Positions 376-23,668 of a stretch of 64,000 nucleotides of DNA are shown one piece after another. A program made the position numbers and the translations under genes. The notes beneath the pieces were generated by a model, which made no database searches, was not told the DNA's origin, and worked only from the letters and a program-made list of their open reading frames with translations. The stretch covers positions 10,247-74,246 of the forward strand of contig JBAZWO010000005.1 in the NCBI GenBank assembly GCA_041660305.1, written 5' to 3'. Within the stretch, counting starts at the first letter, position 1; every line of letters starts with the position of its first letter. The DNA is from Patescibacteria group bacterium. GTDB lineage: Bacteria > Patescibacteriota > Patescibacteriia > UBA9570.

Positions 376-1226
376 GGTTTTACGATAATAATTACTTTCT
401 GGCCATTATTAACATCACCATTATTCCAATCATGTGCCGCTTTGTAAAGAGTCTCATATTTATATTGATAGTTAGCGCCGCGTTTAGTGCCCGGATCGTT
501 GGTGATTATTTTGGTAGCGGTGTAGCCTTTAATAACCAACATATGATACACCGGTCCGGGCGCGGTGTAATAAGGGTTGCCAATTTGGCGGCCGGCGGCG
601 GGTAAAATAACCGGATAACCTTGAGCGAGGGCTTGTTTTATATCGTCTAACGTAAAATCATAAATTAATTCTGTTTTAAAACCGTAAAATTGTTCCAGCG
701 ATTTAGCGGTTTCTGCCGCCGTCATATCAATCGGATACTTTAAATCATTAGCATTATAATTCACCAATTCCAAAATAGCTTTATCGGCATCACTAGCGCC
801 ATTAATAGAACGATTTTGTAAAAATCGAGCGCTCATTAGCATGCTAGCTTCCTCACAGGCTTCTTGATACGGCAAATTCCAATTCGCATACGGTGCTTGC
901 ACGGTAAACGGCACGGCTAAATTAATTGAATCGGGGATAGACATATTCACGTTTATCTCAGATGTAGAGACGCGCTGCAGCGCGTCTCTACTGGCGTCGT
1001 TCACATTTTGGTTTGTATTAACATTTTCATTATTAGAAACAGTATTAGTATTAATATCTTGAAACGACTGTACAGATATTTCCGGCGGTACCGGTTCTTG
1101 ATCTTTTTGATTATACCAATCGCGTAATGTGCTACGATTTAGATAAGCTAATCCAGCACAAATTATTAATAAAATAATAATTACCAAAATAATTTTACGT
1201 AACTTTTTATTTAGGCGTTGTACCAT
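372..1226 (-). CDS. Membrane-anchored C39-like (papain-fold) peptidase family protein
   Basis: N-terminal TM helix IILVIIILLIICAGLAYL. Block VPFTVQAPYANWNLPYQEACEEASMLM resembles C39-like peptidase domains. Carries an in-frame GTAG palindrome (peptide ALQRVSTSE). Confidence 0.5.
   Translation of the reverse strand: MVQRLNKKLRKIILVIIILLIICAGLAYLNRSTLRDWYNQKDQEPVPPEISVQSFQDINTNTVSNNENVNTNQNVNDASRDALQRVSTSEINVNMSIPDSINLAVPFTVQAPYANWNLPYQEACEEASMLMSARFLQNRSINGASDADKAILELVNYNANDLKYPIDMTAAETAKSLEQFYGFKTELIYDFTLDDIKQALAQGYPVILPAAGRQIGNPYYTAPGPVYHMLVIKGYTATKIITNDPGTKRGANYQYKYETLYKAAHDWNNGDVNNGQKVIIIVKP
964..991. repeat. REP-like GTAG palindrome, copy 1 (intragenic)
   Basis: GTAGAGACGCGCTGCAGCGCGTCTCTAC, a perfect 28-nt palindrome inside CDS 372..1226; reading frame stays open. 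Confidence 0.85.
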
Positions 1227-2763
1227 AGTTTTTTGGCCATATTTTTTGTTTAATAATACTAGTTAAACTGGTTATTTCTGGCATGCGTAATAATAACGCC
1301 AAACCTAAATAGGTAACTGTTCCTACCATAACACCAATTCCCAAAGTGAACAACGTGCGTAAATGCAATTGATACACGCCCCAAATAGTTAAACTCATTA
1401 GGCCGCTAGCCAGCAAGCTTTTAGCAAAAGTAATTAATACAGTTTTATCTTGGCCGTATATTTTTTTACGTTTTAGCCAATAAAATAATAATACCACTTG
1501 AGTTAGCGCGGTTAACACAAAGCCGAGCGCCAAACCGGTTACGCCGATATATTTAGAAGCAATCCAGCAGGTAATAATATTAACCAGCATGGCTATTACG
1601 GCAATAATAACCGGTGCAACAGTGTTATGGCGCGCGTAAAATGCCCGCGCTAAAATGTGTAGCAAGCTTTCCAAGGGAATAGATATAGCGAACATGGTTA
1701 AAGTGATGCTGGTGGCCAGCACAGCCTCTTGGCTAAACGCGCCAGTACCAAGCAGGGTACCAATTAATGGTTGGGCTAACGCAATCATGGCTAAGCTAGC
1801 CGGTACGGTAAAAAAAATAATTTGGCGCATAGTCCAGTGTAATTTTTGTTGATATTCGATATTATTTTTATCGGCATAAGCTGTACTTAATACTGGAAAC
1901 GCGGCTGAAGCCAAAGCAATACCGAATAAGCTAACGGGCAAGCTTTGAAAATTACGCGCCAAGTTAAACACGGTAATACTGCCGCTGGTTAACAGCGAGC
2001 CGAACGCGTTATAAATCCACAAGTTAGCTTGCACGGTTAACAAACCAATAATTCTAGGTAGCATTAATTTAACGGTTTGGATAATAGCGGGGTCATGCCA
2101 ATCGGTTAACCACTGCCAGCGCCAACCGGTTTTAATTAATTCAATCAACCGAACGATCATGTGCAAACCAGCTCCAGCAATTACACCAGCTACTACACCT
2201 ATAATACCAAACCGTGGCGCTAAAAAAATAATACCCAGTACAATGCCCACGTTATAAAGCAGGGGAGAAATGGCATAGCTGACAAAACGTTGTAAACCTT
2301 GGAGTGTACTGCCAAATATAGTACTAATACTAAATAGTAACGGAGATAATAACATTAGGCGCGTAGTTTGAATTAATAACAAGCGTTGTTCAGCGTTAAA
2401 TCCCGGCGCTACCAAGTGCGTTAGTTGTGGCATAAATAACCAAGCTAATAATACTGCCGCCAACATTAACAAGCTTAATAAGTTCATTAATTTATTTACC
2501 ACGCGCCAACTAGCTTCCTTCCCTTGTTGTTGCCACAACTGCGTGAATACTGGAATAAATGCCGTGGTTAACGCGGCCGCTAATAAATTAATAATAATAT
2601 CCGGAATAATAAACGATGAATTAAACACATCCAAATCGGTGCCCGCGCCAAATTGGCCGGCTAATAAGCGATCGCGCCATAAACCTAAAATATAACTTAG
2701 CAAAGAAGCCATTCCTAAAATTCCAGCATTAATACCGAGTGAACGTTTGGTAATAACAGACAT
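1207..2763 (-). CDS. murJ: Lipid II flippase MurJ/MviN
   Basis: N-terminus LGMASLLSYILGLWRDRLLAGQFGAGTDLDVFNSSFIIPD plus about 14 TM helices, typical of MurJ. ATG at 2763 (MSVITKRSLG) preferred over the track start at 2805. Confidence 0.9.
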   Translation of the reverse strand: MSVITKRSLGINAGILGMASLLSYILGLWRDRLLAGQFGAGTDLDVFNSSFIIPDIIINLLAAALTTAFIPVFTQLWQQQGKEASWRVVNKLMNLLSLLMLAAVLLAWLFMPQLTHLVAPGFNAEQRLLLIQTTRLMLLSPLLFSISTIFGSTLQGLQRFVSYAISPLLYNVGIVLGIIFLAPRFGIIGVVAGVIAGAGLHMIVRLIELIKTGWRWQWLTDWHDPAIIQTVKLMLPRIIGLLTVQANLWIYNAFGSLLTSGSITVFNLARNFQSLPVSLFGIALASAAFPVLSTAYADKNNIEYQQKLHWTMRQIIFFTVPASLAMIALAQPLIGTLLGTGAFSQEAVLATSITLTMFAISIPLESLLHILARAFYARHNTVAPVIIAVIAMLVNIITCWIASKYIGVTGLALGFVLTALTQVVLLFYWLKRKKIYGQDKTVLITFAKSLLASGLMSLTIWGVYQLHLRTLFTLGIGVMVGTVTYLGLALLLRMPEITSLTSIIKQKIWPKNYGTTPK

Positions 2764-3078
2764 ATAATATAGTGGTATTGTAGAAGATAAGTGGGGGAAT
2801 GGCAAAAATTTTTCAATTTGACATATTTTTTAGCTGTGCTATTATTACCTCATAATACATCGAAGGGTATTCAAAAAATGAGTGCCCTTCATTTTTTTAT
2901 CGCTAAAATATCTTTTAGATTAATCAGATCAATAAAATTAACGCCAACAAGTTTTTTGATTTCTCGAGCAGTTCTTTTACCATGAGCAATGATTTTAACT
3001 AATTTATGATTAGCTAATAAATATGCCATTAATATTTTTTGTACCATAAATAATATTAGCGGCATCGACGAATACTTG

Positions 3079-3122
3079 AATCACAGATAATTCTGATAAA
3101 TTTCTGATGGCACAGATAATGC
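3079..3122. repeat. CACAGAT-type dispersed repeat, degenerate copy
   Basis: aatcacagataattctgataaatttctgatggcacagataat resembles the copies at 6367-6410 and 54844-54885. Confidence 0.5.
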
Positions 3123-3167
3123 AAATTAAATTAAGTAAAATTATCAGTATTCTTAGTGATCTTAAAT

Positions 3168-3196
3168 TTGATGTTATTAAAAAAATCTAGTATAAT
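3168..3196 (+). promoter_or_regulatory. Sigma70-type promoter giving a leaderless HEPN mRNA
   Basis: TTGATG, 17 nt, TATAAT. The -10 box ends 6 nt before the ATG at 3203 and there is no SD. Confidence 0.5.
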
Positions 3197-3202
3197 AAAC
3201 GC

Positions 3203-3613
3203 ATGATGAATACTAAACAAACACAAGACAGCATTGATTATTGGCGCAAAACTGCAGAGCATGATTATGATACTATGTGCGTTTTGTTTAAAACTAAACG
3301 CTATTCAGATTGTTTGTTTTTTGGACATATTATTTTAGAAAAGATTCTTAAAGCTCATGTAGTAAAAACTACTGGTCAGCAACCGCCTTATATTCATAAT
3401 CTTACTAAATTACATGAAGTGGCCGAGCTTAATTTAAACGAAAAACAGCTGGATTTTTTAGATGCAGTAAACGATTTTAATATTAGGGCTCGTTATCCGG
3501 AGCATAAATTAAAATTTTATCAACAATGTACTCTAAAATACACCCAGCCTTATTTTAAAAAAATCACAGAGTTATATCATGAATTATGTCAAAAATTGAA
3601 GCCAAAAAAATAG
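3203..3613 (+). CDS. HEPN domain protein (toxin of a HEPN/MNT pair)
   Basis: All-helical 136 aa with an R-x4-H type motif in NIRARYPEH. Overlaps the cognate minimal nucleotidyltransferase gene. Confidence 0.75.
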   Translation: MMNTKQTQDSIDYWRKTAEHDYDTMCVLFKTKRYSDCLFFGHIILEKILKAHVVKTTGQQPPYIHNLTKLHEVAELNLNEKQLDFLDAVNDFNIRARYPEHKLKFYQQCTLKYTQPYFKKITELYHELCQKLKPKK

Positions 3614-3900
3614 TCATTCAATATGCTCAGGCATTGCAAGCAGCCGATTATTCTTTTAGTGCTATTTATTTATTTGGTTCGCAAGTTAAAGGCACGGCCA
3701 ACAGTTGGAGTGATATTGATGTAGCTGTAGTATCAAATCGTTTACAACGTAATTATGATGCTAATCGTTTTGCTTTATGGAAAATAAGGCGGCAAGTTAA
3801 TCTTAACATAGAACCGCATGGTTTTACGGTTAAAGATTTTGCCAATAATGCTAATCCTATGGCTTATGAGATTCGTAAAACTGGTATTAGAGTAGTGTAA
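3586..3900 (+). CDS. Minimal nucleotidyltransferase (MNT antitoxin)
   Basis: Pol-beta NTase signature YLFGSQVKGTANSWSDIDVAVV. 28-nt overlap with the HEPN gene. Confidence 0.8.
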   Translation: MSKIEAKKIVIQYAQALQAADYSFSAIYLFGSQVKGTANSWSDIDVAVVSNRLQRNYDANRFALWKIRRQVNLNIEPHGFTVKDFANNANPMAYEIRKTGIRVV

Positions 3901-3954
3901 TTTTTTAGAGGATCAATTTGACAAATATTTAAAAATAACCTAGTCTGATAATAG

Positions 3955-4005
3955 ATCCTCGGCCGAAGCTCGCGAGAGCGACTTCAACCTGGCGGAGGAT
4001 TTTTT
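3955..4005 (+). terminator. Hairpin plus T5 terminator after the HEPN/MNT operon
   Basis: ATCCTCGGCC ... GGCGGAGGAT (one mismatch; inner TCGC-gaga-GCGA hairpin) followed by TTTTT. Confidence 0.45.
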
Positions 4006-4007
4006 GT

Positions 4008-4634
4008 TTATTCAAACATCTTTCCAATCCAGGAATCATCTCTATCGCTATTCCAATGTTTTGGGTTATTTAAAATGTAATTACGCACATTGTTTAATTC
4101 CGGTTCGTTACGGATAACATGATCGTAAAATCGGGATTGCCATTTAAAATCGTAATATTTTCTTTTTCGACATTCTCTGGTAACCATGCCTTTGAATTGA
4201 TTGATCATTGAACCTAATGAATGCGGTTGCCATTCTATATGATGACGCGGATTATGTGGACGTGGTCCCGTAGAGACGCCCTGCCAGGGCGTCTCTACCG
4301 TTTCATTGCAATGCGTTTCTACATTATTATGTTTCCCAATACATATTAAATGATCATGATTTTTGTTAATAATCAAAATCCCATGCACATGATCCGGCAT
4401 CACAATAAATTGATCCAATGTTACATATGGTCGTAATAATGCCGTACGATACCATTCATTATAAATAATTTTCCCAATGTTATTCACGCACATGATATTA
4501 TTTTTAATATATCCAAAACAGGCAAAACGTTTTTTGGCACAAATGGTAACAAAATACCTGCCAGATTTGGTATAATTATAATTTGGCAAACGCGTAGACA
4601 AAACGCGATATTTATCCAAAAATAAATCAAACAT
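4008..4634 (-). CDS. REP-associated tyrosine transposase (RAYT, IS200/Y1 HUH family)
   Basis: HUH motif MPDHVHGILII and C-terminal catalytic-Tyr region VRNYILNNPKHW. Single gene without IS ends. Contains GTAG palindrome copy 2 in frame (VETPWQGVST). Confidence 0.8.
   Translation of the reverse strand: MFDLFLDKYRVLSTRLPNYNYTKSGRYFVTICAKKRFACFGYIKNNIMCVNNIGKIIYNEWYRTALLRPYVTLDQFIVMPDHVHGILIINKNHDHLICIGKHNNVETHCNETVETPWQGVSTGPRPHNPRHHIEWQPHSLGSMINQFKGMVTRECRKRKYYDFKWQSRFYDHVIRNEPELNNVRNYILNNPKHWNSDRDDSWIGKMFE
4270..4298. repeat. REP-like GTAG palindrome, copy 2 (inside the RAYT gene)
   Basis: GTAGAGACGCCCTG-C-CAGGGCGTCTCTAC, 14-bp arms. Confidence 0.85.
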
Positions 4635-4706
4635 AAAAAGCGCTTATTAATAAAAATAGTGAGCGCTCAATAATTTAAATCTAGCAAATTTTATTAAGTT
4701 GGTCAA
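4635..4706 (-). promoter_or_regulatory. RAYT promoter plus conserved leader with TGAGCGCTCA palindrome
   Basis: Reverse strand: TTGACC (4706-4701), 17 nt, TAGATT (4683-4678), then TTATTGAGCGCTCACTAT (palindrome 4660-4669). The same leader occurs upstream of dprA. Confidence 0.45.
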
Positions 4707-4773
4707 AATAGCCATTTTTTTGCCCATGTTCATAACTAATACCTAATATTAGGTAAATGTTAATATTGTGTAC

Positions 4774-4801
4774 TTGACAAATAATAAAAAAGTGGTATAA
4801 T
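4774..4801 (+). promoter_or_regulatory. Near-consensus sigma70 promoter with extended -10
   Basis: TTGACA, 16 nt, TGgTATAAT. Confidence 0.6.
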
Positions 4802-4987
4802 GTTGGCACATTTGAAATGAAGTAACTGAAGGAAGTCTTGTTCATTACAACTAAATTTGGCAGGAAGTAGTAATACTGTGGGTGTTTTGCACACGGAATA
4901 AAAACGCATGATATATCCATATCATCGTGCTGTTTCACTCCGGGTGCATTAACCTTTCCGCAAATCCGCGGAAATGCACCCACCAAC

Positions 4988-5022
4988 AGTCGTTCAGCTG
5001 TGGCAAGCTGACGACTTTTTTT
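4988..5022 (+). terminator. Intrinsic terminator inside the 5' leader (attenuator or riboswitch expression platform)
   Basis: AGTCGTTCAGCT-gtggca-AGCTGACGACT followed by T7. It ends 5 nt before the SD AAAGGAG (5027-5033) of the 5040 CDS. Confidence 0.6.
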
Positions 5023-5039
5023 CAAGAAAGGAGCTTATA

Positions 5040-6185
5040 ATGAAGCTCAACGCCAATTCGATCGTTCGTGGTTTTTTCATGTCGCTGACTTTCCTTGCTT
5101 TGGCGGGGAATGAATCATGTCCTGGAGCCGATTCCGACATGGATGGCTATCAGGACGACGGAAATGGCGGAACTGACTGCGATGACGAGAACGCCTCTGT
5201 CTACCCTGGCGCCGTCGAGCTGTGTGATGGGCTGGACAATGACTGTGATTGGCAGGTGGATGAGGGGGTGGAATTGATCACTTTATATCCCGATGCCGAT
5301 GGCGACGGGTTTGGTGACATGTACACCACATGGACAGAGGAAGCCTGTGCCGTCCTCACCGGCTATGTCGCGGATCACACTGACTGCGATGACGCGGATG
5401 CCACCAGCTATCCCGGCGCTCCGGAGCTATGTGACGTGCTGGACAATGACTGCGACGGTTGGACCGACGAGCCGTCGGACAATGATGGCGACGGGTATAC
5501 TGGTAGCTGTAGCGGAAGCGGAGAGGACTGCAATGATGCAGATGCAGCGGTCAATCCGGAAGCGATCGAAACCTGCAATGGGGTAGACGATAACTGTGAC
5601 GGCTGGGTTGACTATGGAGTGATCGGCTACATGGATGCTGATCATGACGGGTATGGGGACGGCGATCCTATCCCGTCCGCAGTGAATTGCGGAAAACCGT
5701 TTACAGGAACCGGAAATTTCGTTTTTGTCGCGGGCGACTGCGATGACGAGTATCCTCACAGCTATCCTGGTGCCGCCGAGTTCGCCGATGGCAAGGACAA
5801 CGACTGTGATGGAGCGGTGGACGAAGACATGGACGTCGCGGACAACGACAACGACGGGCTTTCCGAAGCCCAGGGCGACTGTGTCGATACCAACTCGGCT
5901 GTTAATCCTGACGCGCAGGAAAGTTGTTACACCTATTTGGTGGATGATGATTGCGATGGTCGGGTTGATGTTGTTGATGTCTACGAAGACTTCGACAGTG
6001 ATCGCTGGGGTGGCCGGCCGCGCGGGTCAGTGGAATGCGAATACAGGTACACCGTCATATACCCTCTGGCCTCGGGGATACCTGGTGGCGACTGCAACGA
6101 CAACAACGCGGCTATCAATCCCGCGGCCACCGAAGTTGCCGATGGCAAGGACAACGACTGCGACGGCCTGATTGACGAGGAGTGA
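5040..6185 (+). CDS. Secreted Cys/Asp-rich repeat protein (MopE-type putative metal-binding motif repeats)
   Basis: Signal peptide MKLNANSIVRGFFMSLTFLALAG. Six units of DCDD-x5-PGA-x-E-x-CDG-x-DNDCDG-x-x-DE alternate with DxDxDG loops. Strong SD. 62% G+C in line 5401-5460. ATG 5040 preferred over track start 4974. Confidence 0.75.
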   Translation: MKLNANSIVRGFFMSLTFLALAGNESCPGADSDMDGYQDDGNGGTDCDDENASVYPGAVELCDGLDNDCDWQVDEGVELITLYPDADGDGFGDMYTTWTEEACAVLTGYVADHTDCDDADATSYPGAPELCDVLDNDCDGWTDEPSDNDGDGYTGSCSGSGEDCNDADAAVNPEAIETCNGVDDNCDGWVDYGVIGYMDADHDGYGDGDPIPSAVNCGKPFTGTGNFVFVAGDCDDEYPHSYPGAAEFADGKDNDCDGAVDEDMDVADNDNDGLSEAQGDCVDTNSAVNPDAQESCYTYLVDDDCDGRVDVVDVYEDFDSDRWGGRPRGSVECEYRYTVIYPLASGIPGGDCNDNNAAINPAATEVADGKDNDCDGLIDEE

Positions 6186-6366
6186 TTTTTTCCTGCCAAA
6201 TTTTCCGCTCTTTTTTCTTTATGGATGACCAATCTGCCGGCCTCAAGCCTGCGGAGCGGTTTCCAAATCTCGCCTCATGTACCTACCTTCTCGCGTAGCT
6301 CTACATCAGGCATTCTCAATATTCATCTTTTTTAAGCAAAGGTGAGTAGTGAGAATGAAAAAATAG

Positions 6367-6410
6367 AATCACAGATTACGCAGATAAAATTCATGATGTC
6401 ACAGATAAAT
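6367..6410. repeat. CACAGAT-type dispersed repeat
   Basis: aatcacagattacgcagataaaattcatgatgtcacagataaat, nearly identical to 54844-54885. Confidence 0.7.
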
Positions 6411-6587
6411 TAAATTAGTTAAATTTAATTAAATTTGTATTTATCTGCCTGCCCGCCGTACTCCGATTTAGGAGGCAGGCGGGTGTTATCAGCATTTAAT
6501 CAGTGACATCTGTGTTTCAATTGATTGACCTAGCTGATTGGAAATGTTACGATGCCTAAACTAATTAATCATTAATTTTTTATATTT

Positions 6588-6971
6588 ATGCAGCAAACGG
6601 ATCGCGATCCAAGCAATGCTGAATTATTATTAGCAATTCAAGGTTTTGCCAATAATAACGAGCAACGCTTGCAAAAAATTGAAACGGCTGTAGTGTTTCT
6701 TCAGGGTTTTGCTAATTATGTTCAAACGAACATGGTTACTAAAACAGAATTTAATGAGGTAAAGCAAGATGTAGAATCACTAAAACAAAAAGCAGACAAT
6801 ACAACCACTATTTTAGATGGTATTGCTAAGAATGTCAGTACTATTCAACAAGATCATGTAGCATCTATTGCTTGGCTCCAACGGCATGACGAAAATTTTA
6901 AAGCTCACGATAAAATTATCGGGCATAATTGTAATTTTGAACTAGCCGTTGGTTTATCGCAGGGAGTTTGA
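6588..6971 (+). CDS. Hypothetical coiled-coil protein
   Basis: 127-aa ORF of host-like composition. TTGACC, 17 nt, TACGAT promoter about 50 nt upstream. No recognisable domain. Confidence 0.4.
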   Translation: MQQTDRDPSNAELLLAIQGFANNNEQRLQKIETAVVFLQGFANYVQTNMVTKTEFNEVKQDVESLKQKADNTTTILDGIAKNVSTIQQDHVASIAWLQRHDENFKAHDKIIGHNCNFELAVGLSQGV

Positions 6972-7002
6972 GAATTGCCTTCACTGCCCATAATACGCTA
7001 AG

Positions 7003-8814
7003 ATGGAGGCGATGAACACGGCGGTAGAACAAATTAAACAGCGCTTGGATATTGTGGAATTACTCCAGGAATATTTGCGTTTAACAAAGGCGGGCACGAA
7101 CTGGAAGGCGAACTGCCCATTTCATCATGAAAAAACGCCTTCGTTTGTAGTAAGCCCCGATAAGCAAATTTGGCACTGTTTTGGCTGTGGTAAAGGGGGC
7201 GATGCGTTTACTTTTATTCAGGAAATGGAAGGAGTGGAATTTCCGGAAGCTTTGCGTTCACTAGCGCAACGCGCCAATATTACATTAGAGCAATACAAAC
7301 CAGAAGAACAAAATCATAAAACAGTATTATTGGATATTGTAAAACAAAGCCAGCTATTTTTTTCTAAAACGTTGCAGGAAGATTCGGCGGCTAAAATAGC
7401 GCGCGATTATTTACAGCAACGCGTTGTGTTACCGGCTACGCAGCAGCAATTTGGGCTAGGCTACAGTTTTAACGATTGGCGCAAATTATATCAGCACCTA
7501 CAACAAGTTGGTTATAAAGAAAATGATTTGGTAGCGGCCGGCCTGATTATTCAGGCGGAAGACAAACAATCGTACTACGATCGGTTCCGTGGCCGCTTAA
7601 TGTTTCCCATTTTCGATCATCATGGGGTAATGGTTGGTTTTACGGCACGGGTGCTAGAAGCGGATGCTACCGGCGGAAAATATGTTAATTCACCGCAATC
7701 TATTTTGTACGATAAATCTAGAATTATTTACGGTTTAAATTTTGCTAAGCAGATTATTAAAAAAGTAAACGCCACCATTGTAGTAGAGGGGAACATGGAT
7801 GTGATTACGGCGCATCAAGCGGGTTTTACGAACACGGTAGCCGTTTCTGGCACGGCATTTACCGAAGCACAAATTCAATTATTAAAACGCTATTCGCCTA
7901 ATTTGTTGCTAGCGTTCGATATGGATAAAGCCGGCTTGCAGGCGGCACAGCGTAGTATTGCCGTGGCGTTAAAATATGATATGAACGTAAAAGTAATTCA
8001 GTTGCCACCAGAATTTAAAGATCCAGATGAATGTATTAAAAAAGATCCGGCAATTTTTAGAACGGCCATTCGCGAAGCCAAGCATGTGCTTGATTTTTTC
8101 TTTGTCAGTATTACCAAACCATTAGATTTAACCCAAGCCGATCATAAAAAAAAGGCCGTGCAACAATTAATTCCGGTGTTGCGCATTATTAACGATCCGG
8201 TAGAGCGATCTCATTATGTGCAAAAGTTGGCTAATTTAGTGCAGGTAGATGAAACAATTATTCAAACTAAATTAAATACGGTAACAACAAAAAAACTAGC
8301 TAACACTAATTCAACAACAGCTAATACTATAGTGCCTGCCCAAGCGCTAGTTTTGCCAAAAAATCGTTCCGGCTTATTAGCCCAGCAAGTGCTAGCCATT
8401 ATTATTAGCCAGCCGGGCACTTGGGAATACGCCGTGCAATATTTACAGCCAGAATTTATTCAAGAGGCCAACTGGCAAGAGGTTTACAAACAAATGCTTA
8501 TTTATTATAATAACACCGGTGAATTTAATCTCACAGCTTATTTAACGGTTTATCCGCACCAGGCGGAGTTATTGCACTCCCTGGAGTTGTTGTATGCAGA
8601 TTTAACGGCTATTGCCGCGCCAGATGCAGTACAGCGAGAATTAATTCAAGGTATTAACGAGTTGCACAAACTAGATATTAAGCGGCGCTCACAACAGTTG
8701 GAGTGGCAATTAAAACAAGCCGAACAAGAACACGATACTGATTTGATTAATCAATTAATTAATACAGTTACTAATTTAAATAACGAACGTAGCCAGTTAT
8801 CTAAAGCACATTAG
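7003..8814 (+). CDS. dnaG: DNA primase DnaG
   Basis: CHC2 zinc finger CPFHHEKTPSFVVSPDKQIWHCFGCGKGGD and TOPRIM region VVEGNMDVI...FDMDKAG. Confidence 0.95.
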   Translation: MEAMNTAVEQIKQRLDIVELLQEYLRLTKAGTNWKANCPFHHEKTPSFVVSPDKQIWHCFGCGKGGDAFTFIQEMEGVEFPEALRSLAQRANITLEQYKPEEQNHKTVLLDIVKQSQLFFSKTLQEDSAAKIARDYLQQRVVLPATQQQFGLGYSFNDWRKLYQHLQQVGYKENDLVAAGLIIQAEDKQSYYDRFRGRLMFPIFDHHGVMVGFTARVLEADATGGKYVNSPQSILYDKSRIIYGLNFAKQIIKKVNATIVVEGNMDVITAHQAGFTNTVAVSGTAFTEAQIQLLKRYSPNLLLAFDMDKAGLQAAQRSIAVALKYDMNVKVIQLPPEFKDPDECIKKDPAIFRTAIREAKHVLDFFFVSITKPLDLTQADHKKKAVQQLIPVLRIINDPVERSHYVQKLANLVQVDETIIQTKLNTVTTKKLANTNSTTANTIVPAQALVLPKNRSGLLAQQVLAIIISQPGTWEYAVQYLQPEFIQEANWQEVYKQMLIYYNNTGEFNLTAYLTVYPHQAELLHSLELLYADLTAIAAPDAVQRELIQGINELHKLDIKRRSQQLEWQLKQAEQEHDTDLINQLINTVTNLNNERSQLSKAH

Positions 8815-8823
8815 CCTAGCCGT

Positions 8824-10125
8824 ATGCCCACTAAAAAACAGATCATGAAAAAAAAGACCAAGCCAGTAAAAGCAACCAAAACCAGCTCTGCTAAAAAAGC
8901 TACCAAACTGGCCAGTAAAAAACATCTGGCCAAGCCAAAAAGCGTTACAGCAGTTCATGTAAAAACAAAAGCGCCAATAGTAGCGAAACATATTCCGGCT
9001 TTAGTGCGCGAATTGCCAGAAAATTATATTAAAACTATTTTTCCGCAATTAGAAGCGGAGCGCTTAATTAAAAAAGGTGCTTCACGTAATTTTTTAACCG
9101 AAACTGAATTAATTTATATATTTGCTAACTTAGAAGATTATATTACTGATTTTGAGCAATGGTTGTTGCAGGTGGAAAAACGGGGTATTCAAATTGTAGA
9201 AACCGATGGTGGTATTCTAGGCTTAGATTTAAAAAAAGCCGGCATTTATGATGCTAATAAAGAAAAAGCCGGCAAAGCGGCCATGGATTTATCCGATATT
9301 TCCAGCGATTCCATTCAAATGTATTTGCGGGAAATTGGTAAAGTGCCGTTGTTAAACACCGAAGAGGAAGTGCGTTTAGCTAAATTAAAAGAAGCCGGTA
9401 ATTTAGAAGCCAAGCGCAAATTATTAGAAGCTAACTTGCGCTTAGTAGTTAGTATTGCCAAAAAATTTACTGGGCGTTCCTTATCATTATTAGATTTAAT
9501 TCAAGAGGGCAATATTGGGTTGCATCGGGCTGTAGAAAAATTTGATTATCGCAAAGGCTATAAATTTTCTACTTATGCCACTTGGTGGATTCGGCAAGCT
9601 ATTACCAGGTCATTAGCCGATCAATCGCGCACCATTCGTATTCCGGTGCACATGGTGGAAACTATTAATAAGTTTCAGCAAATTGAACGGGCTTTAGTGC
9701 AGATTTTAGGCCGTGAACCATTGCCGGAAGAAATTGCCGCCGAAATGGGCGAAGAAATCGGCAAGGTACTGAATATTATAAAAATTTCTCAAGAAACAGT
9801 TTCCCTAGAAACTTCGGTAGGAGATGATGAATCGGAAGATTCCACTTTAGGTGATTTTATTGAAGATCAAAAAACCATGTCGCCCGATCGCTCGGCTTCG
9901 TTGCAACTACTAAAAGATCATGTGATTGATATTATTAAAGATTTGCCACCACGCGAACAGAAAATTTTAGAAATGCGTTTTGGCTTAGTGGATGGGGTAG
10001 CCCATACTTTAGAAGAAGTTGGTCAAGAGTTTGGGGTAACTCGTGAACGGATTCGACAAATTGAAGCCAAGGCCTTAGATAAAATTCAGCAGCATGTGGG
10101 CATGAGAAAATTAAGGGATTATTAA
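8824..10125 (+). CDS. rpoD: RNA polymerase primary sigma factor (sigma-70 family)
   Basis: Region 2 [30 protein letters not shown] and region 4 [24 protein letters not shown]. Lys-rich N-terminal extension. Confidence 0.95.
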
Positions 10126-10128
10126 CAA

Positions 10129-10195
10129 CCTACCTCATCCCCGCCCTTCGGGCACCCCTTCTCCTCTGAGGAGAAGGGGAAGGGGGGTTGAGGTC
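10129..10195. repeat. G+C-rich nested-hairpin element (CCTCTCC/GGAGAGG family)
   Basis: cctacctcatcccc...cttctcctctgaggagaagg...ggggttgaggtcc, immediately after the rpoD stop. Confidence 0.8.
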
Positions 10196-10203
10196 CGAAT
10201 TGT

Positions 10204-11739
10204 ATGGCAATAATTAAACGTAAAATTTACTCTTTAAGTGGTCTAGCCTTACCGCCAGAAGCCACGGCTTATGGTTTAGCGCGCTACAGCCGATCAGCCG
10301 CCCCGGCTAAAGACACGTTCACTGAAATGTCTGAAAAAATTCTGAAAGGCAGTGAAGCCATGAAGAAATTTTTTGAAGTGTTTTATTTTCAGTATGGGCA
10401 TGCTTCAATTGCCGATTTGGCACATGTAGCCATGGCGCTAGAAAATATTTCTATGGTGGCGGCTATTGAAGTAGTAGACGAGCCGGTATGGGATGGGCAA
10501 GAACGCTCTACTCGTTACCAGAAATTTTCTTTAGAAGGGGTACACATTCCTACAGTAATTAAACATAAGCCGCAATTATTAAAATCGTTTCAAACAGCCA
10601 TTAAATACCAAATGGCAGAATACGAAACCCAATATAAAGAATTGCTTGAAGCCGTGCGCGTTGCTAATCCGTTACCAAATAACTATCCGGAAGGAGCTTA
10701 CAAAGCGGCCACACGCGCTCGGGCATTTGATATGACTAGATACATGTTACCACTCGGTTCGTATACCAGTGTTGGCCAAATTACTTCTGGCCGCACGTTG
10801 GAAAAAATGATTTCCCGGTTATTATCAAATGAATACAGCGAAGTACGCGAAGTAGCCGCGGATTTAAAAACTGCCTGCAATACCCCCAGCTTTAATCCGT
10901 TTACTAAAGAAATAAATACGTTATTAAAAGATATAACGAACGTTTCTACCAACGTGAAACGTTTAAAACGCATTTTAAAAACCACTGCACCAGTACCATC
11001 TTTAGTAAAATATACGGCTCCAATTAAATATTTAATTGAAACGAAAAAAGATTTACAGCAAGTAGCGCGAGAATATTTGAAAATTAAAAACATTGATTCC
11101 AGTAACGATGTAGTAGTCTATCAAAATCAAGAGCCATTGGTAGAGGCTGTTACCACATTATTATACGGCGTAACTCATTATTCTTACGGCCAAATTTCTC
11201 AACAAGTGAATAGTTGGAACCGTAAAAAATTGGCGGAAGTGTATGAAGTTGGCACCAAACGGCGCACCCGGCACGATGAATTATCTCGGGCACTTGATAC
11301 CCACAGCTTAACCTTTGATATTTTAATGGACATTGGCTCGTTTCGTGATATGCACCGTCACCGTCGCACGGTACAAGTGCGCCAAGATTATACTTATGAA
11401 CATGGCTATACCTGGCACCCGGAAATAGAACGGTACGGTAACTTGTATCCGTATCAAGTAGCTATGGATGCTATTTGTGCCACTGGTAAAAAACTAGACA
11501 AAATTAACCATGAAGCCGGGGTATACGCTATGCCGCTGGGTTGTAAAAATAGATTTTTGTTAAAAATGGGCTGGAATGAGCTGGATTATATTGGCAAATT
11601 ACGCACCGGCAAAGGCCGGCACTTATCCTATTGGAATATTGCTCTACGCATGGTAGAAGAAGCCAGTAAGCTTTGCCCAGAACGTACTAAACATATTCCT
11701 ACTACGCCGTTAGAACAGGATAGCGTTTATGAACGATAG
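10204..11739 (+). CDS. thyX: FAD-dependent thymidylate synthase ThyX, long (about 500 aa) form
   Basis: YGHASIADLAHV and the ThyX motif region FRDMHRHRRTVQ. About twice the length of minimal ThyX. Confidence 0.75.
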   Translation: MAIIKRKIYSLSGLALPPEATAYGLARYSRSAAPAKDTFTEMSEKILKGSEAMKKFFEVFYFQYGHASIADLAHVAMALENISMVAAIEVVDEPVWDGQERSTRYQKFSLEGVHIPTVIKHKPQLLKSFQTAIKYQMAEYETQYKELLEAVRVANPLPNNYPEGAYKAATRARAFDMTRYMLPLGSYTSVGQITSGRTLEKMISRLLSNEYSEVREVAADLKTACNTPSFNPFTKEINTLLKDITNVSTNVKRLKRILKTTAPVPSLVKYTAPIKYLIETKKDLQQVAREYLKIKNIDSSNDVVVYQNQEPLVEAVTTLLYGVTHYSYGQISQQVNSWNRKKLAEVYEVGTKRRTRHDELSRALDTHSLTFDILMDIGSFRDMHRHRRTVQVRQDYTYEHGYTWHPEIERYGNLYPYQVAMDAICATGKKLDKINHEAGVYAMPLGCKNRFLLKMGWNELDYIGKLRTGKGRHLSYWNIALRMVEEASKLCPERTKHIPTTPLEQDSVYER

Positions 11740-12922: not shown

Positions 12923-14311
12923 TATTTTTGGTCCATTAAGTGTATCTTCTATTTGATAACCCTTACTTTCAATTTTTCTTCGTAACATATCCGCTACCTC
13001 CCATTGTTTGGCGTCCCGTGCAATTTCGCGTTCTTCTACTAGTTGAGTAATTTCCGGCGGCACATTAGCGGCGGCACTAATCGCTTCGTGATAATAACCT
13101 TCTAAATGTAAACCTAATATTTTATCCATGGCAAATAACGTAGCTAATTTTTTTCCGCTATCTAAATGTGAGTGCAACATATTCCACATAACAGCCAACG
13201 CTTTGGGAGTATCTAAATCGTTATTTACTGCCATGGTAAAGCGTTCCATGGTTTCCGTATCAATTTCGGTAGCTTCATCGTATTCATAATCCACAATCAT
13301 GGCGCGTAAATTATTTAATGCGTTACTAGCGCCTGTTAATGCTTCGAACGTAAAATTTAATTTAGCGCGGTAATGCGCACCTAAACAAAAATAGCGATAG
13401 GCGAGCGGGTCATAACCTTTTTCTTTTAACAGGCTTATCGTTAAAAAATTGCCCTTGGATTTTCCCATGCGTTCAGCGTTGGTAAGCAAAAATTCACCAT
13501 GTAACCAATAATTAACCGTTACATGATGTAACGCACCTTCATTTTGGGCAATTTCATTAGTATGGTGTACTGGAACATGATCAATTCCACCGCAGTGAAT
13601 ATCAAAATGCTCGCCTAAGTATTTAATACTCATGGCCGAACATTCAATGTGCCAGCCAGGAAAACCTGTTTCCCACGGTGATTCCCATTCCATCAGCCGT
13701 TTAGGCTGCCCTGAGCTTGTCGAAGGGCTAAATTTCCATAAGGCAAAATCGGTAGCGTGTTTTTTTTCGCCGGTCTCAATGCGAGCACCGGCTTGCAAAC
13801 ATTTAATATCAAGTTTTGCTAGTTTACCGTAATCAGATAATTTACTAGTATCAAAATAAATCCCGTCACTAGTTTTATACGTAAAACCGTTTTGTTCTAG
13901 TTTTTTTATTAAATCAATTTGTTCTTTAATATGATCGGTAGCTTTGCACCAAATAGTCGGCGGCTGAATATTCAAATCGTGCAAATCTTGTTGGAACGCT
14001 TCCGTATAAAATTTAGCAATATCCCAAACTGATTTTTTTTCACGTTGAGCGCCTTGTTCCATTTTATCTTCGCCGCTATCGGCATCGTCAGTTAAGTGGC
14101 CAACATCGGTAATGTTCATAACATGGTTAACTGTATAACCAGCTAGTTCCAAAGTGCGCTTTAAAACATCTTCAAATAAATATGTGCGCAAATTTCCAAT
14201 ATGAGCATAATGATAAACCGTTGGCCCGCAAGTATATAAACCCACTTTATGTTCGTGGAGCGGTTTAAATAATTCCTTCTTACGAGTTAGAGTGTTGAAG
14301 AGATATAACAT
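12836..14311 (-). CDS. cysS: Cysteine--tRNA ligase
   Basis: HIGN ([12 protein letters not shown]), KMSKS variant RMGKSKGN, and PGWHIECS. The last roughly 27 aa are repeat-derived. Contains a 21-nt in-frame palindromic insert. Confidence 0.95.
13708..13728. repeat. 21-nt palindromic insert inside cysS
   Basis: GCCCTgagcttgtcgaAGGGC encodes STSSGQP between the conserved DFALWK and WESPW blocks. Confidence 0.6.
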
Positions 14312-14333
14312 AGTAATATTTTACACTATTTCT

Positions 14334-14356
14334 CGTGGATAAACCAGTTATCCACA
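14334..14356. promoter_or_regulatory. Inverted pair of DnaA-box-like 9-mers upstream of cysS
   Basis: CGTGGATAA-accag-TTATCCACA. The second half is the perfect E. coli-type DnaA box. Confidence 0.3.
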
Positions 14357-14384
14357 GATCTAGCCAAAAATATGATAAATCTAT

Positions 14385-14412
14385 TTGACGTTTTTTTTGA
14401 GCCAGTTATAAT
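14385..14412 (+). promoter_or_regulatory. Sigma70-type promoter of an orphan small transcript
   Basis: TTGACG, 16 nt, TATAAT. Confidence 0.5.
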
Positions 14413-14418
14413 GGCCAC

Positions 14419-14604
14419 AAAGCAAAGTTATGAATCACTCCCAAGCTCACAATTTTAGCCTCGTATCCGTGTTAAAACACACCCCACGTTGTTTTGTTAT
14501 TAATTATTATACACAACGCGGATTGAGACTAAACCCTGCCCACTAGCCTAAGTTAACCTGAAAACCAAAACAAGTCCCAATCCGCCAAACTAGGCGGATT
14601 TTTT
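14419..14604 (+). ncRNA. Candidate small RNA of about 185 nt, unknown family
   Basis: Bounded by the promoter above and the intrinsic terminator AATCCGCC-aaacta-GGCGGATT plus T4-5 (14579-14604). Only a 38-codon SD-less ORF inside. Confidence 0.35.
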
Positions 14605-14657
14605 CTACCTCTCCCTCTGTCCCTCCCCTATTAGGGGAGGGATGAAGGGTGGGGTAG
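14605..14657. repeat. G+C-rich nested-hairpin element
   Basis: ctacctctccctctgtccctcccctattaggggagggatgaagggtggggtag. Confidence 0.8.
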
Positions 14658-14740
14658 AACACTCCTCAACTAGCTCTTTACAACTAGGTAACGTAAGCAC
14701 TCACGTTTTTAAGCTTCGTTTTAATGTATTAAAACATGAA

Positions 14741-14828
14741 GCCGGGAATGGAAAAGATATTATCAACCGGTAGAGACGCCCCGCCGGGGCGTCTCTACAA
14801 AAACTATAATATCTGTTCCATTCCCGGC
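14741..14828. repeat. 88-nt composite hairpin tipped by REP-like GTAG palindrome copy 3 (14770-14798)
   Basis: GCCGGGAATGGAA / TTCCATTCCCGGC (13 bp), GATATTAT / ATAATATC (8 bp), then GTAGAGACGCCCCG-C-CGGGGCGTCTCTAC. Confidence 0.85.
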
Positions 14829-14888
14829 TCGTGGTATGAGCTGAGACTCCCCAGGCCGCCTCTGCGGCCGCTGTTAGAGGTGGTTAGT

Positions 14889-15104
14889 ATGCCAGGATTT
14901 GAACGAAGTACAGAAGCAAGGGCACGGAAGCTAGAGGATGTTTTTCCATGGAGGTCCAGCCAGATAGAGGGACTCCTGGACAGCTGCTCATCCGACGAGC
15001 AGTTAGTACGTGCTCTGGACAAGATCCAGGAAGAAGAGGACAGCGGGGCTCAAGAAAAGGGTGGGAGGGATCTTCGTCGCAGAAGCGATGAAGCTAGGCT
15101 GTAA
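14889..15104 (+). CDS. Small acidic hypothetical protein S1 (71 aa), G+C-rich, SD-led
   Basis: SD GAGGTGG (14877-14883) 5 nt before the ATG. 57% G+C in line 14941-15000. No homology recognised. Track ORF start 14736 lies inside the hairpin and is rejected. Confidence 0.35.
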   Translation: MPGFERSTEARARKLEDVFPWRSSQIEGLLDSCSSDEQLVRALDKIQEEEDSGAQEKGGRDLRRRSDEARL

Positions 15105-15209
15105 TAGGCCAGGAGGATGTGGAGGCAGGCTCCATGTGTGATGAGTGGTCGCAAGACTGTTCAACGCTGGGTATCCCGTCTTCATCTTTTCGCTTACGTT
15201 ACCCACCTT

Positions 15210-15240
15210 CTTCTGTTGATAATACACTTATCAACAGAAG
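15210..15240. other. Perfect 13-bp hairpin made of two DnaA-box-like half sites
   Basis: CTTCTGTTGATAA-tacac-TTATCAACAGAAG. Confidence 0.7.
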
Positions 15241-15380
15241 CTCGGTGGAGCAATTTGACACTTTTTTTACAAGCAGTACAATACTTTCACATGCAACATA
15301 CCCGCGTAATCATTAGCAACATTATTATTAGCCACCTGGTGGTTAGGTAGTTGTTGCACGCGAAATCTTGCAGCACTCTA

Positions 15381-15407
15381 GCCACCTTACCGGTGGCGTT
15401 TTTGTTT
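15381..15407 (+). terminator. Intrinsic terminator
   Basis: GCCACC-ttacc-GGTGGC followed by GTTTTTGTTT. Confidence 0.5.
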
Positions 15408-15424
15408 ATACAGGCTCTTTACAA

Positions 15425-15568
15425 TTCACCACTCTCGCTGTGTGTTGATTTGACCCTTCCCCCTGACCCCCTTCCCTGCAAGGCAGGGGGAAAATTAATT
15501 AATTATTCCCTCCCTCTTGCAGGAGGGAGGGTTAGGGTGGAAGGTCACTACACAGCGAGAGTGGTGAA
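15425..15568. repeat. 144-nt composite hairpin: 19-bp perfect outer inverted repeat around a G+C-rich nested-hairpin element
   Basis: TTCACCACTCTCGCTGTGT (15425-15443) pairs with ACACAGCGAGAGTGGTGAA (15550-15568). The interior matches the CCTCCC/GGGAGG family. Confidence 0.85.
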
Positions 15569-15595
15569 AAAAACGTTATCTTTTAGGAGGTCTCT

Positions 15596-15793
15596 ATGGA
15601 CACGGATTTGCAAAAAAAAATTAACGAATTATCTGGTAATTTTTTTGAGCTGAGGACTATGTCCTCAGCGTGTCTTCATGGTATTTCGCATGACGATGCT
15701 CGGTATACACCGAGCTATCGTGAATGTGCTGTAGCGGTAAAGGAGCTTAGGCTACAACTCGAAGCGCAGTCGATGGCCGATTGCCCCCTATAA
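15596..15793 (+). CDS. Small hypothetical protein S2 (65 aa), SD-led
   Basis: AGGAGG (15585-15590) 5 nt before the ATG. Followed by an 8-bp-closed hairpin, CAGGCACG...CGTGCCTG (15818-15856). No homology recognised. Confidence 0.45.
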   Translation: MDTDLQKKINELSGNFFELRTMSSACLHGISHDDARYTPSYRECAVAVKELRLQLEAQSMADCPL

Positions 15794-16003
15794 GGAGTCC
15801 GCTCGTTTTTTCGGAGACAGGCACGGGTATGATTTCACAATCATTACTCGTGCCTGCTCTCCACCCTCTTCTATTTCTTAACCAATTAGGCTAAATATTA
15901 CGTTATCATACTTTTCAACTGGCTTCATTTTTAATAATAATATAAAAGGAAAAGTAAGTTTTTGTTCTTTTCAAAATTAGCATCGATCTTTACATTATAT
16001 TCT

Positions 16004-16071
16004 CAGAGATTCGGGGTAAGAAAATAAGTTTATCATGCTTGATTAATTTATTTTGCTACCCCTAATCTCTG
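16004..16071. other. 68-nt hairpin upstream of S3
   Basis: CAGAGATTCGGGGTA pairs with TACCCCTAATCTCTG: 15-bp arms with one mismatch and a 38-nt AT-rich loop. Confidence 0.75.
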
Positions 16072-16122
16072 GAATTCACTAGAGAAGGGGTGATAATCTC
16101 CCGCATAGATAGGAGGCTAGAT

Positions 16123-16326
16123 ATGTGGGGAGGAAAAGATTTTTTGAAAAGCATTTCGGAAGAGGAAAGGGCCGTGCGGTATAATCGCACGGCCACGACC
16201 TCGGCCACGACCTCGGCCACGACCTCGGCCACGACCTCGGCCACGACCTCGGCCACGACCTCGGCCACGACCTCGGCCAAATCCGTTCCGGTGATCCCGT
16301 TGAGGGATCGATACCCAGGGATTTAG
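16123..16326 (+). CDS. Small repeat protein S3 (67 aa) with (ATTS)x7 core
   Basis: AGGAGG (16111-16116) 6 nt before the ATG. MWGGKDFLKSISEEERAVRYNRT-(ATTS)7-AKSVPVIPLRDRYPGI. A strong terminator follows. ATG 16123 preferred over GTG 16090. Confidence 0.5.
   Translation: MWGGKDFLKSISEEERAVRYNRTATTSATTSATTSATTSATTSATTSATTSAKSVPVIPLRDRYPGI
16191..16279. repeat. Perfect tandem repeat, 12 bp x 7.4
   Basis: GGCCACGACCTC repeated seven times without any mismatch, plus GGCCA. Preceded by the 9-bp hairpin GGCCGTGCG-gtataat-CGCACGGCC (16170-16194). Confidence 0.95.
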
Positions 16327-16329
16327 TTA

Positions 16330-16377
16330 GAGGACGAGTAGTTCGCTTAACGCGATGCTACTCGTCCTCATTTTTTT
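16330..16377 (+). terminator. Strong intrinsic terminator
   Basis: GAGGACGAGTAG ... CTACTCGTCCTC (12 bp), then A and T7. Confidence 0.8.
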
Positions 16378-16466
16378 AAAAAAAATAAACAGCACCATTT
16401 TTGGCCAAATACAGGTAATTATGTTAATCTTATAAATAATCAATTATTAATAAAAGCATTAATTTT

Positions 16467-16507
16467 CCCCCTCTCCTTTGAGGAGAGGGGGCTAGGGGGT
16501 GAGGTAG
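16467..16507. repeat. G+C-rich nested-hairpin element
   Basis: ccccctctcctttgaggagagggggctagggggtgaggtag. It abuts the ATG at 16509. Confidence 0.8.
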
Positions 16508-16508
16508 T

Positions 16509-23571: not shown

Positions 23572-23668
23572 AACCCACCGGCTTACCTGCCCGCCGTACT
23601 CCGTCTAAGGAGGCAGGCGGGAAGCCGGGGGTTAATATTACTAACCCCTGGGTTTATCCCAGTGGGTT
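23572..23668. repeat. AACCC(C/A)CCGG...GGGTT hairpin family, composite copy
   Basis: aacccaccggctt-acctgcccgccgtactccgtctaaggaggcaggcggg-aagccgggggtt plus aacccctgggtttatcccagtgggtt. Confidence 0.8.

Follow-up and report, generated by a model that had tools for sequence, protein, structure and literature searches.

A MopE-motif gene of foreign composition behind a structured, terminator-containing leader in a Kerfeldbacteria-like Patescibacterium

The locus described here lies upstream of dnaG in a Patescibacteria genome (assembly GCA_041660305.1, contig JBAZWO010000005.1, positions 10,247 to 74,246); this stretch of 64,000 nt is the window in all that follows, and coordinates are counted from its first letter. 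At the centre of the locus is a gene for a secreted-type protein of 381 amino acids (aa) built from MopE-type repeats, the MopE gene, which is preceded by a putative promoter, a structured leader and a predicted intrinsic terminator and followed by a non-coding flank rich in G+C (Table 1). DnaG (7003-8814) and the genes around it assign the window to Patescibacteria. In GTDB, DnaG is matched best by the nearest relative, L002 (65% identical), and by Candidatus Kerfeldbacteria (~50%), and judged by these sequences the host is a Kerfeldbacteria-like Patescibacterium.

Table 1. Features of the MopE locus, in window coordinates, from 5' to 3'.
Feature	Position	Strand	Basis or remark
HEPN/MNT pair	3203-3900		HEPN 136 aa, MNT/nucleotidyltransferase 104 aa, overlapping
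Gene for a tyrosine transposase like those associated with repetitive extragenic palindromes (REP), RAYT-like	4008-4634	-	NF047646, E 4e-13, under its cutoff
Perfect 14-bp palindrome ACCTAATATTAGGT	4741-4754		read from sequence; part of inverted repeat I10
Putative sigma-70-type promoter TTGACA-16-TGgTATAAT, extended -10	4774-4801	+	12/12 match with TG, consensus scan
Predicted 5' leader hairpin	4812-4850	+	minimum free energy and centroid folds of 4808-4987
Left arm AAATTTGGCAGGAA of perfect 14-nt inverted repeat	4853-4866	+	repeat pair I6; unpaired in folds
Predicted Y-shaped three-way junction	4878-4983	+	fold -44 kcal/mol, z = -6.3; no Rfam match; no second copy
Predicted intrinsic terminator: 11-bp stem, loop GUGGCA, U7 tract	4988-5022	+	terminator scan and fold
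Shine-Dalgarno sequence AAAGGAG	5027-5033	+	read from sequence; CAAG before it, 6 nt to ATG 5040
Coding sequence of the 381-aa secreted-type protein	5040-6185	+	Pfam PF11617, E 5e-57, six stretches
Right arm TTCCTGCCAAATTT of perfect 14-nt inverted repeat	6190-6203	+	5 nt after stop codon
G+C-rich (0.55), non-coding, structured 3' flank	6221-6305	+	composition; fold z = -4.3

The promoter consists of -35 and -10 hexamers set 16 nt apart, within the usual 16-18 nt, and carries the TG of an extended -10 element, just as a first-pass annotation of this DNA had described it; its activity is predicted from these elements. From base composition, ~0.11 such perfect sites would be expected over both strands of the whole window, against the 3 found, one of which is intragenic (44096). 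A perfect match is unusual, yet it is not proof of activity. Transcription would start at ~4808, and a consensus scan of the plus strand from 4802 to 5040 found no further promoter-like site before the ATG. The 14-bp palindrome, which occurs once in the window, is centred ~61 bp 5' of the presumed start and could be an operator or an activator site; if it is an operator, regulation would act at initiation instead of in the leader.

From the presumed start to the ATG the leader measures ~232 nt, and it ends in a G+C-rich hairpin followed by a U-tract, where termination is predicted. The terminator stem (4988-5016) contains one bulged U and has a calculated energy of -15.8 kcal/mol, with pair probabilities of 0.5-1.0; the run of seven T occupies 5016-5022. 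The hairpin, the T-run, the Shine-Dalgarno (SD) sequence and the ATG are all as the first-pass annotation had them; the spacer between terminator and SD sequence is 4 nt long. With 17 nt between the end of the terminator and the ATG, a separate promoter could not fit behind it, and because the leader holds no promoter-like site either, the MopE gene would be transcribable only through the terminator. It is therefore reasonable to infer attenuation of some kind.

Two start codons have been called for the gene, ATG 5040 by JGI (381 aa) and ATG 4974 by NCBI (403 aa, MFA5995804.1). We prefer 5040 as the probable start because it has a strong SD sequence and opens a signal-like N-terminus, and because 4974 falls within a hairpin of the leader (P3, below). 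The order of promoter, long leader, terminator and ribosome-binding site (RBS) is not matched by any other gene of the window, where the one other terminator near a start codon looks like that of the upstream gene itself. Among MopE homologues, a crude scan flagged a terminator before the RBS at 2 of 54 loci, L089, which on inspection proved to be a false start-codon call, and L103. By this sequence comparison, the layout is not a trait of MopE genes.

The whole leader folds with a calculated energy of -72 kcal/mol (z = -4.6 relative to shuffled sequences). For a 116-nt core (4872-4987) the values are -44 kcal/mol and z = -6.3, and its minimum free energy structure makes up 13% of the ensemble. 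The core contains the predicted three-way junction, which we call the Y-domain. Helix P1 (4878-85/4976-83) has predicted pair probabilities of 0.83-0.99; P2 (4888-4948) is a long, interrupted arm with a predicted apical hairpin at 4902-4930; and P3 (4955-61/4968-74) pairs TTTCCGC with GCGGAAA at a predicted probability of 0.69-1.0. The 5' leader hairpin and an unpaired linker stand 5' of the junction, and the terminator starts 4 nt after P1. The multi-stem leader of about 230 nt that had been claimed for this DNA is thus present, while the hairpin quoted as its example lies at 4942-4981 and not at 4952-4984, and survives in part: the inner stem TTTCCGC/GCGGAAA is predicted with a probability of ~1, whereas the outer stem GGGTGCA/TGCACCC has a predicted pair probability of ~0.01, because P1 and P2 of the three-way junction take both of its strands.

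The coding sequence (CDS) has a G+C content of 0.564 in a window of 0.381. At third codon positions (GC3) the difference is wider, 0.619 against 0.314±0.047 (range 0.175-0.401; z = 6.5) in the 43 other open reading frames (ORFs) of at least 150 aa in the window, which served as the host codon reference. The amino-acid composition of the protein was considered as the cause of the excess and rejected: written with host codon usage, the same protein would have an expected G+C of 0.457 and a GC3 of 0.317±0.022, and the observed GC3 is 13.7 standard deviations above that. Amino-acid content therefore explains a rise from 0.38 to 0.457 only, under half of the excess, and the remainder is synonymous choice, as seen for GAC (44/74 in the gene, 33/258 in the host) and CTG (6/15 and 33/570); CCA is not used in the gene at all. 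The first-pass annotation had set a CDS of ~62% G+C against a host level below 42%. Codon usage bears out the foreign character of the gene, but the figure was too high, and 0.62 happens to equal the GC3.

On the 5' side, G+C is 0.26-0.35 at 4635-4877, 0.47 at 4878-4983 and 0.43 at 4984-5039. On the 3' side, the structured flank beyond the stop codon has no ORF in six frames and probably marks the right-hand boundary of what is foreign; host repeats return from ~6370, at 6370-6406 (copy at 54845-54881) and at 6448-6483 (copy at 23586-23621). The former is a 37-nt element with a 97% identical copy, the latter a G+C-rich hairpin, CCTGCCCGCC...GGAGGCAGGCGGG, with a 92% identical copy. The 80 best metagenome MopE loci have a median G+C of 0.61, and MopE homologues are found mostly on high-G+C contigs. 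The gene is compositionally foreign, and these data together fit import from a higher-G+C donor, as had been supposed.

This import comes with a caveat from the nearest relative. In L002, positions 1-310 are the 3' part of a MopE-type gene that lies immediately before dnaG on the same strand and is cut off by the contig end; the fragment matches PF11617 with 35.9 bits (cutoff 27) and has a GC3 of 0.53, compared with 0.38 for the dnaG of that contig. A protein search for the rest of this gene found nothing, and the other 81 dnaG loci (L085, L086 and 79 more) have no MopE motif nearby. With a second MopE-type gene of raised G+C at the corresponding place in L002, it is uncertain that the transfer was recent and happened once: either the gene was acquired before the two lineages separated and kept its high G+C, or such genes arrive at this site repeatedly. 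In the window, all genes between murJ (1207-2805, minus strand) and dnaG are of accessory type. L085 and L086, whose DnaG is 68% identical, have other genes upstream of dnaG (PIN, DUF2283 and others) and no MopE gene. Since the closest relatives hold different genes there, the region upstream of dnaG is variable.

The protein matches PF11617 (Cu-binding_MopE, 'putative metal-binding motif') in six places, with 190.1 bits against a cutoff of 27. The six MopE motifs (starting at residues 46, 115, 163, 233, 280 and 351) and six loops of DxDxDG type (residues 31, 85, 147, 199, 268 and 317) follow each other in strict alternation, so that the alternation read from the sequence at first pass is upheld; 74 of the 381 residues are Asp and 21 are Cys. 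An alignment with 31 relatives gives a family unit of ~60 residues, DxDGDGYG...C..P.GYV...DCDD..A...PGA.E.CDG.DNDCDG..DE. By eye, the N-terminus reads MKLNANSIVR, then a hydrophobic stretch, GFFMSLTFLALA, then G, which suggests that the protein is secreted. An AlphaFold2 model reached a predicted local distance difference test score (pLDDT) of 76.7 and a predicted template-modelling score of 0.38, with a pLDDT below 50 over most of residues 1-27. A Foldseek comparison of the model with the PDB gave no significant neighbour (best E = 1.4), and the PDB sequences, MopE* entries included, gave no match at E<=0.01.

There are 6137 relatives at E<=1e-3, all of them distant. Local BLASTP alignment gives the best one an identity of 44% (32-49% among the matches listed; up to ~52% in the MAFFT alignment), and the listed ones span Cyanobacteria, Pseudomonadota, Bacteroidota, Myxococcota and Patescibacteria; none can be named as the donor. 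Within this very large family the protein is an unremarkable new member, and its NCBI record already bears the name 'putative metal-binding motif-containing protein'. PF11617 repeat proteins are abundant in Myxococcota and many uncultured bacteria. With these 'MopE-related' proteins it shares the ~60-residue repeat and the signal-like N-terminus, but it is shorter (381 aa, relatives ~500-660 aa), CDG is without its first Cys in two of its six motifs (ADGKDNDCDG), and its gene lies with foreign codon usage in an A+T-rich Patescibacteria genome. The relatives best in size are in a tandem array of at least 8 MopE-motif genes on the ENA contig L082 (43% G+C, positions 6001-11131), next to M4 peptidase, Ig-like and reelin-subrepeat genes.

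The name of PF11617 comes from MopE of Methylococcus capsulatus, with which the protein shares the short C.DG.DN.CDG motif. A MopE/CorA copper protein proper was considered and rejected, since there is no full-length similarity and no significant match to any PDB sequence or fold; there is also no sign of the His/His/kynurenine copper site. PF11617 accounts for little of the MopE sequence and lacks specificity for MopE/CorA copper proteins (PMC6189053), and comparable Cys/Asp motifs are known in teneurins and gametolysins (PMC3278476). The DxDxDG loops set among disulfide-forming cysteines are likewise shared with the Ca2+-binding repeats of thrombospondin type 3 and teneurins, but there is no Pfam TSP_3 match at E<=0.01, and Ca2+ binding is predicted from the motif. 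The most reasonable reading of the sequence is a Ca2+-stabilised, disulfide-rich extracellular repeat protein, most plausibly with a role as a surface or adhesion protein. Of the earlier description as an extracellular metal-binding protein or adhesin, the secreted-looking Cys/Asp repeat protein is supported, and the metal-binding part, drawn from a 30-residue motif that lacks specificity for MopE/CorA copper proteins, is not.

Taken together, we read the locus as an imported surface-protein gene expressed via a terminator-containing attenuator leader, in which the Y-domain is a candidate control point, and we give this reading a tentative probability of about 0.4. An accessory gene of foreign composition sits in the variable region upstream of dnaG and encodes a secreted-type repeat protein, probably rich in disulfides and stabilised by Ca2+ or another metal; transcription from the sigma-70-type promoter would pass through the structured leader of 232 nt. 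The terminator 17 nt before the start codon would attenuate this transcription, with most transcripts ending by default at ~5022, leaving an RNA of ~215 nt and the gene presumably off, and the protein would be made from read-through only. The Y-domain would be the likeliest site for a factor, either a protein or a small ligand, to tune that read-through. A more ambitious version, in which Y-domain and terminator together are a riboswitch or factor-dependent antiterminator of a new, orphan class in Patescibacteria that switches on an acquired Ca2+/metal-binding surface protein, possibly with a 14-nt pairing of the 5' and 3' untranslated regions (UTRs) that closes the mRNA, is a long shot.

Several results weigh against attenuation through the Y-domain. 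The minus strand of the leader is nearly as well folded (z = -4.1); the leader is nonetheless assigned to the plus strand, because promoter, U-tract and RBS set the direction. None of the 4227 models of Rfam 15, run over the whole window, matched the leader at gathering score. Relaxing the threshold to E<=10 gave nothing above chance level in 4600-6500 or, with the laxest filters, in 4795-5045 (251 nt), the best of these lax matches being 17.6 bits to a small nucleolar RNA model, and the leader is left with no Rfam family. Searches with nhmmer, blastn and R1, a covariance model built on the Y-domain, found no leader homologue in 1.30 Mb of related Patescibacteria loci and none in 0.39 Mb around 80 MopE homologues, so that the leader recovered only itself in a total of ~1.7 Mb. 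Neither nhmmer nor the covariance model matched the leader in L082-L084 or the 80 metagenome MopE loci. A search by synteny through 80 dnaG loci of GTDB Patescibacteria and 2 Logan relatives met with no leader, and there was no leader match in a phage collection, a plasmid collection (where a single 68-nt match falls inside the CDS repeat) or a pattern scan of viral contigs. Every available copy of the locus is 100% identical. Because no homologous leader was found and all copies of the locus are identical, there is no comparative support for the structure and there are no covarying pairs.

Neither co-transcriptional snapshots nor a fold in which the 3' arm of the terminator was forced open produced an antiterminator of comparable energy, which also counts against the reading. 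Forcing that arm to remain unpaired changed the predicted energy from -70.7 to -59.2 kcal/mol, left the Y-domain unchanged and created no new Y-domain helix. The 5' arm found only a weak pairing of 5-7 bp (4826-4833 with 4988-4997), transient and in one co-transcriptional snapshot. Y-domain and terminator are thus predicted to fold independently. The ligand-gated riboswitch proposed in the first-pass annotation, which could not be placed in an Rfam family, has no homologous leader and has no antiterminator of comparable energy, is therefore unsupported, and the riboswitch reading of the leader is unproven. The architecture fits attenuation; none of the evidence identifies a sensor.

We weighed these results against other explanations of the same DNA. 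Positions 4808-5022 could be a stand-alone small RNA (sRNA) of ~215 nt with its own terminator, the MopE gene being served by a constitutive, unregulated leak-through and nothing being sensed. A very strong promoter and a strong terminator bound a compact and very stable fold, the thermodynamic independence of Y-domain and terminator is as for an sRNA with its own terminator, and the window has other ORF-less units running from promoter to terminator (14385-14605 and 15255-15403). We nevertheless consider this explanation doubtful: the terminator stands 4 nt from a strong SD sequence and 17 nt from a complete gene without a promoter of its own, and the RNA has no second copy, no homologue that our searches found and no match to an sRNA of Rfam. 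It is unlikely that the structured segment and the terminator are functionless passenger DNA from the donor, that is, the donor's leader or the 3' end of an upstream gene, with the MopE gene poorly expressed or silenced. The rise in G+C after 4877, which may put the left foreign edge near 4853-4878, the equally G+C-rich, non-coding 3' flank, and the lack of conservation and of an antiterminator would all suit such an origin. The composition does not discriminate, however, since structured RNAs are G+C-enriched in A+T-rich genomes anyway. Furthermore, the leader contains no coding remnant (a 114-aa ORF on its minus strand has no family match, and the plus-strand ORFs are short), a perfect extended -10 promoter stands exactly in front, and the ORF is undamaged, its six repeats being regular and its N-terminus signal-like.

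A perfect 14-nt inverted repeat, of a kind expected by chance in ~3 of 10,000 trials (p ~3e-4, dinucleotide-shuffled leader against 3' flank), brackets the CDS, and its arms might delimit a mobile or invertible cassette subject to phase variation, the leader structure being secondary. The left arm sits where G+C begins to rise, a third, 12/14 copy of the motif lies at 4555-4568, a RAYT-like transposase gene is adjacent, and the region is variable among relatives. This explanation is nonetheless highly improbable. Reading the sequence at the repeat ends revealed no target-site duplication; G+C-rich DNA runs on for 100 nt past the right arm; the surveyed stretch 2500-9000 contains no serine or tyrosine recombinase and no matching insertion sequence, only the RAYT-like enzyme; and the motif is found nowhere else in the window. 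RAYT/HUH enzymes work on REP hairpins, not on inverted repeats of this sort. All three assemblies of the locus also show a single orientation. These assemblies also bear on a last alternative, that a G+C-rich gene was joined to a Patescibacteria contig by mis-assembly. In its favour is the abrupt change of composition on either side of a 1.4-kb segment, in a contig assembled from a metagenome. Both junctions are spanned with 100% identity by the 89-kb JGI/NCBI contig, by the ENA MEGAHIT contig L167 (19.8 kb; window 3503-9548) and by the Logan contig L001 (window 4609-6644). Since three assemblies agree, the join is not an assembly artefact, and the chimeric assembly that the first-pass annotation had named among its possible refutations is rejected. 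In addition, the independent metagenome-assembled genome of the nearest relative (L002) has its MopE-type gene beside dnaG, and the parts from promoter through leader and RBS to CDS fit together as one unit; a chimera is hardly credible.

The inverted repeat itself is left unexplained: it could serve pairing between the 5' and 3' UTRs or mark the ends of a cassette or inversion. The perfect 14-nt complementarity of an unpaired part of the leader to the DNA just past the stop codon resembles the 5'-3' UTR pairing of icaR in Staphylococcus aureus, but here the pairing is predicted from sequence and would leave the RBS of the gene uncovered. Known invertible or mobile cassettes differ in having what is not seen here: a recombinase, a target duplication or a second orientation.

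Our preferred reading, the attenuator leader, is closest to terminator riboswitches and protein-dependent attenuators of the PyrR/LicT type. In common with them it has a strong promoter, a long leader, a junction before the terminator, then the RBS, and likewise a gene without any other promoter. It differs in that there is no match among the Rfam models, no mutual exclusion of domain and terminator was found, and no homologues were found. Leader-peptide attenuation was also considered and is judged not to apply, the leader having only ORFs of 2, 7 and 14 codons, with no Asp or Cys runs and no convincing SD sequences. A REP element in the leader was rejected as well; the leader shows no sequence relationship to the REP family of the window.

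Attachment to other microbes is the way of life of Patescibacteria, and very little is known of their gene regulation or surface proteins. If the attenuator reading is true, the locus would be a concrete case, within this group, of attenuation governing an imported surface factor, and if the leader senses something, a regulatory RNA class would be added for the phylum. The leader is a single, unconserved instance outside known families, and its value is that of a candidate and not of a discovery. Discussion of riboswitches in Patescibacteria has so far treated them as potential tools for engineering, not as native regulators (PMC11665869).

Upstream of the MopE gene, the HEPN/MNT pair resembles a type VII toxin-antitoxin module (MntA-type, E 2e-11, under the family cutoff) and adjoins the RAYT-like gene. 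The REP-like palindrome of the window, GTAGAGACG-N8-11-CGTCTCTAC, has five copies (964-991, 4270-4298, 14770-14798, 54310-54337 and 63707-63734), the second of which sits inside the RAYT-like ORF. Between the MopE gene and dnaG is a 127-aa ORF of unassigned function. Two Logan contigs, L168 (SRR6484324) and L169 (SRR18595301), both start at window position 6635, and L001 ends at 6644, which suggests a branch of the assembly graph (a repeat or a strain variant) within this ORF.

About 20 loci besides L002, L003 and L006 have a dnaG of Patescibacteria type, as do these three, yet are titled 'uncultured Gammaproteobacteria bacterium', which looks like mislabelling. Farther along the window, 14311-16509 is a stretch of 2.2 kb without a convincing ORF and with G+C-rich segments, which holds long G/C-rich palindromes at 14608-14656, 15455-15545 and 16464-16505. 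Near-consensus promoters at 14385 and 15255 are each followed by a terminator-like hairpin (14579-14605 and 15381-15403). A search of this stretch with Rfam gave only chance matches to hairpin (microRNA) models. Within it, the non-coding DNA at 16190-16285 is a perfect tandem repeat of a 12-nt unit, GGCCACGACCTC, in ~8 copies.

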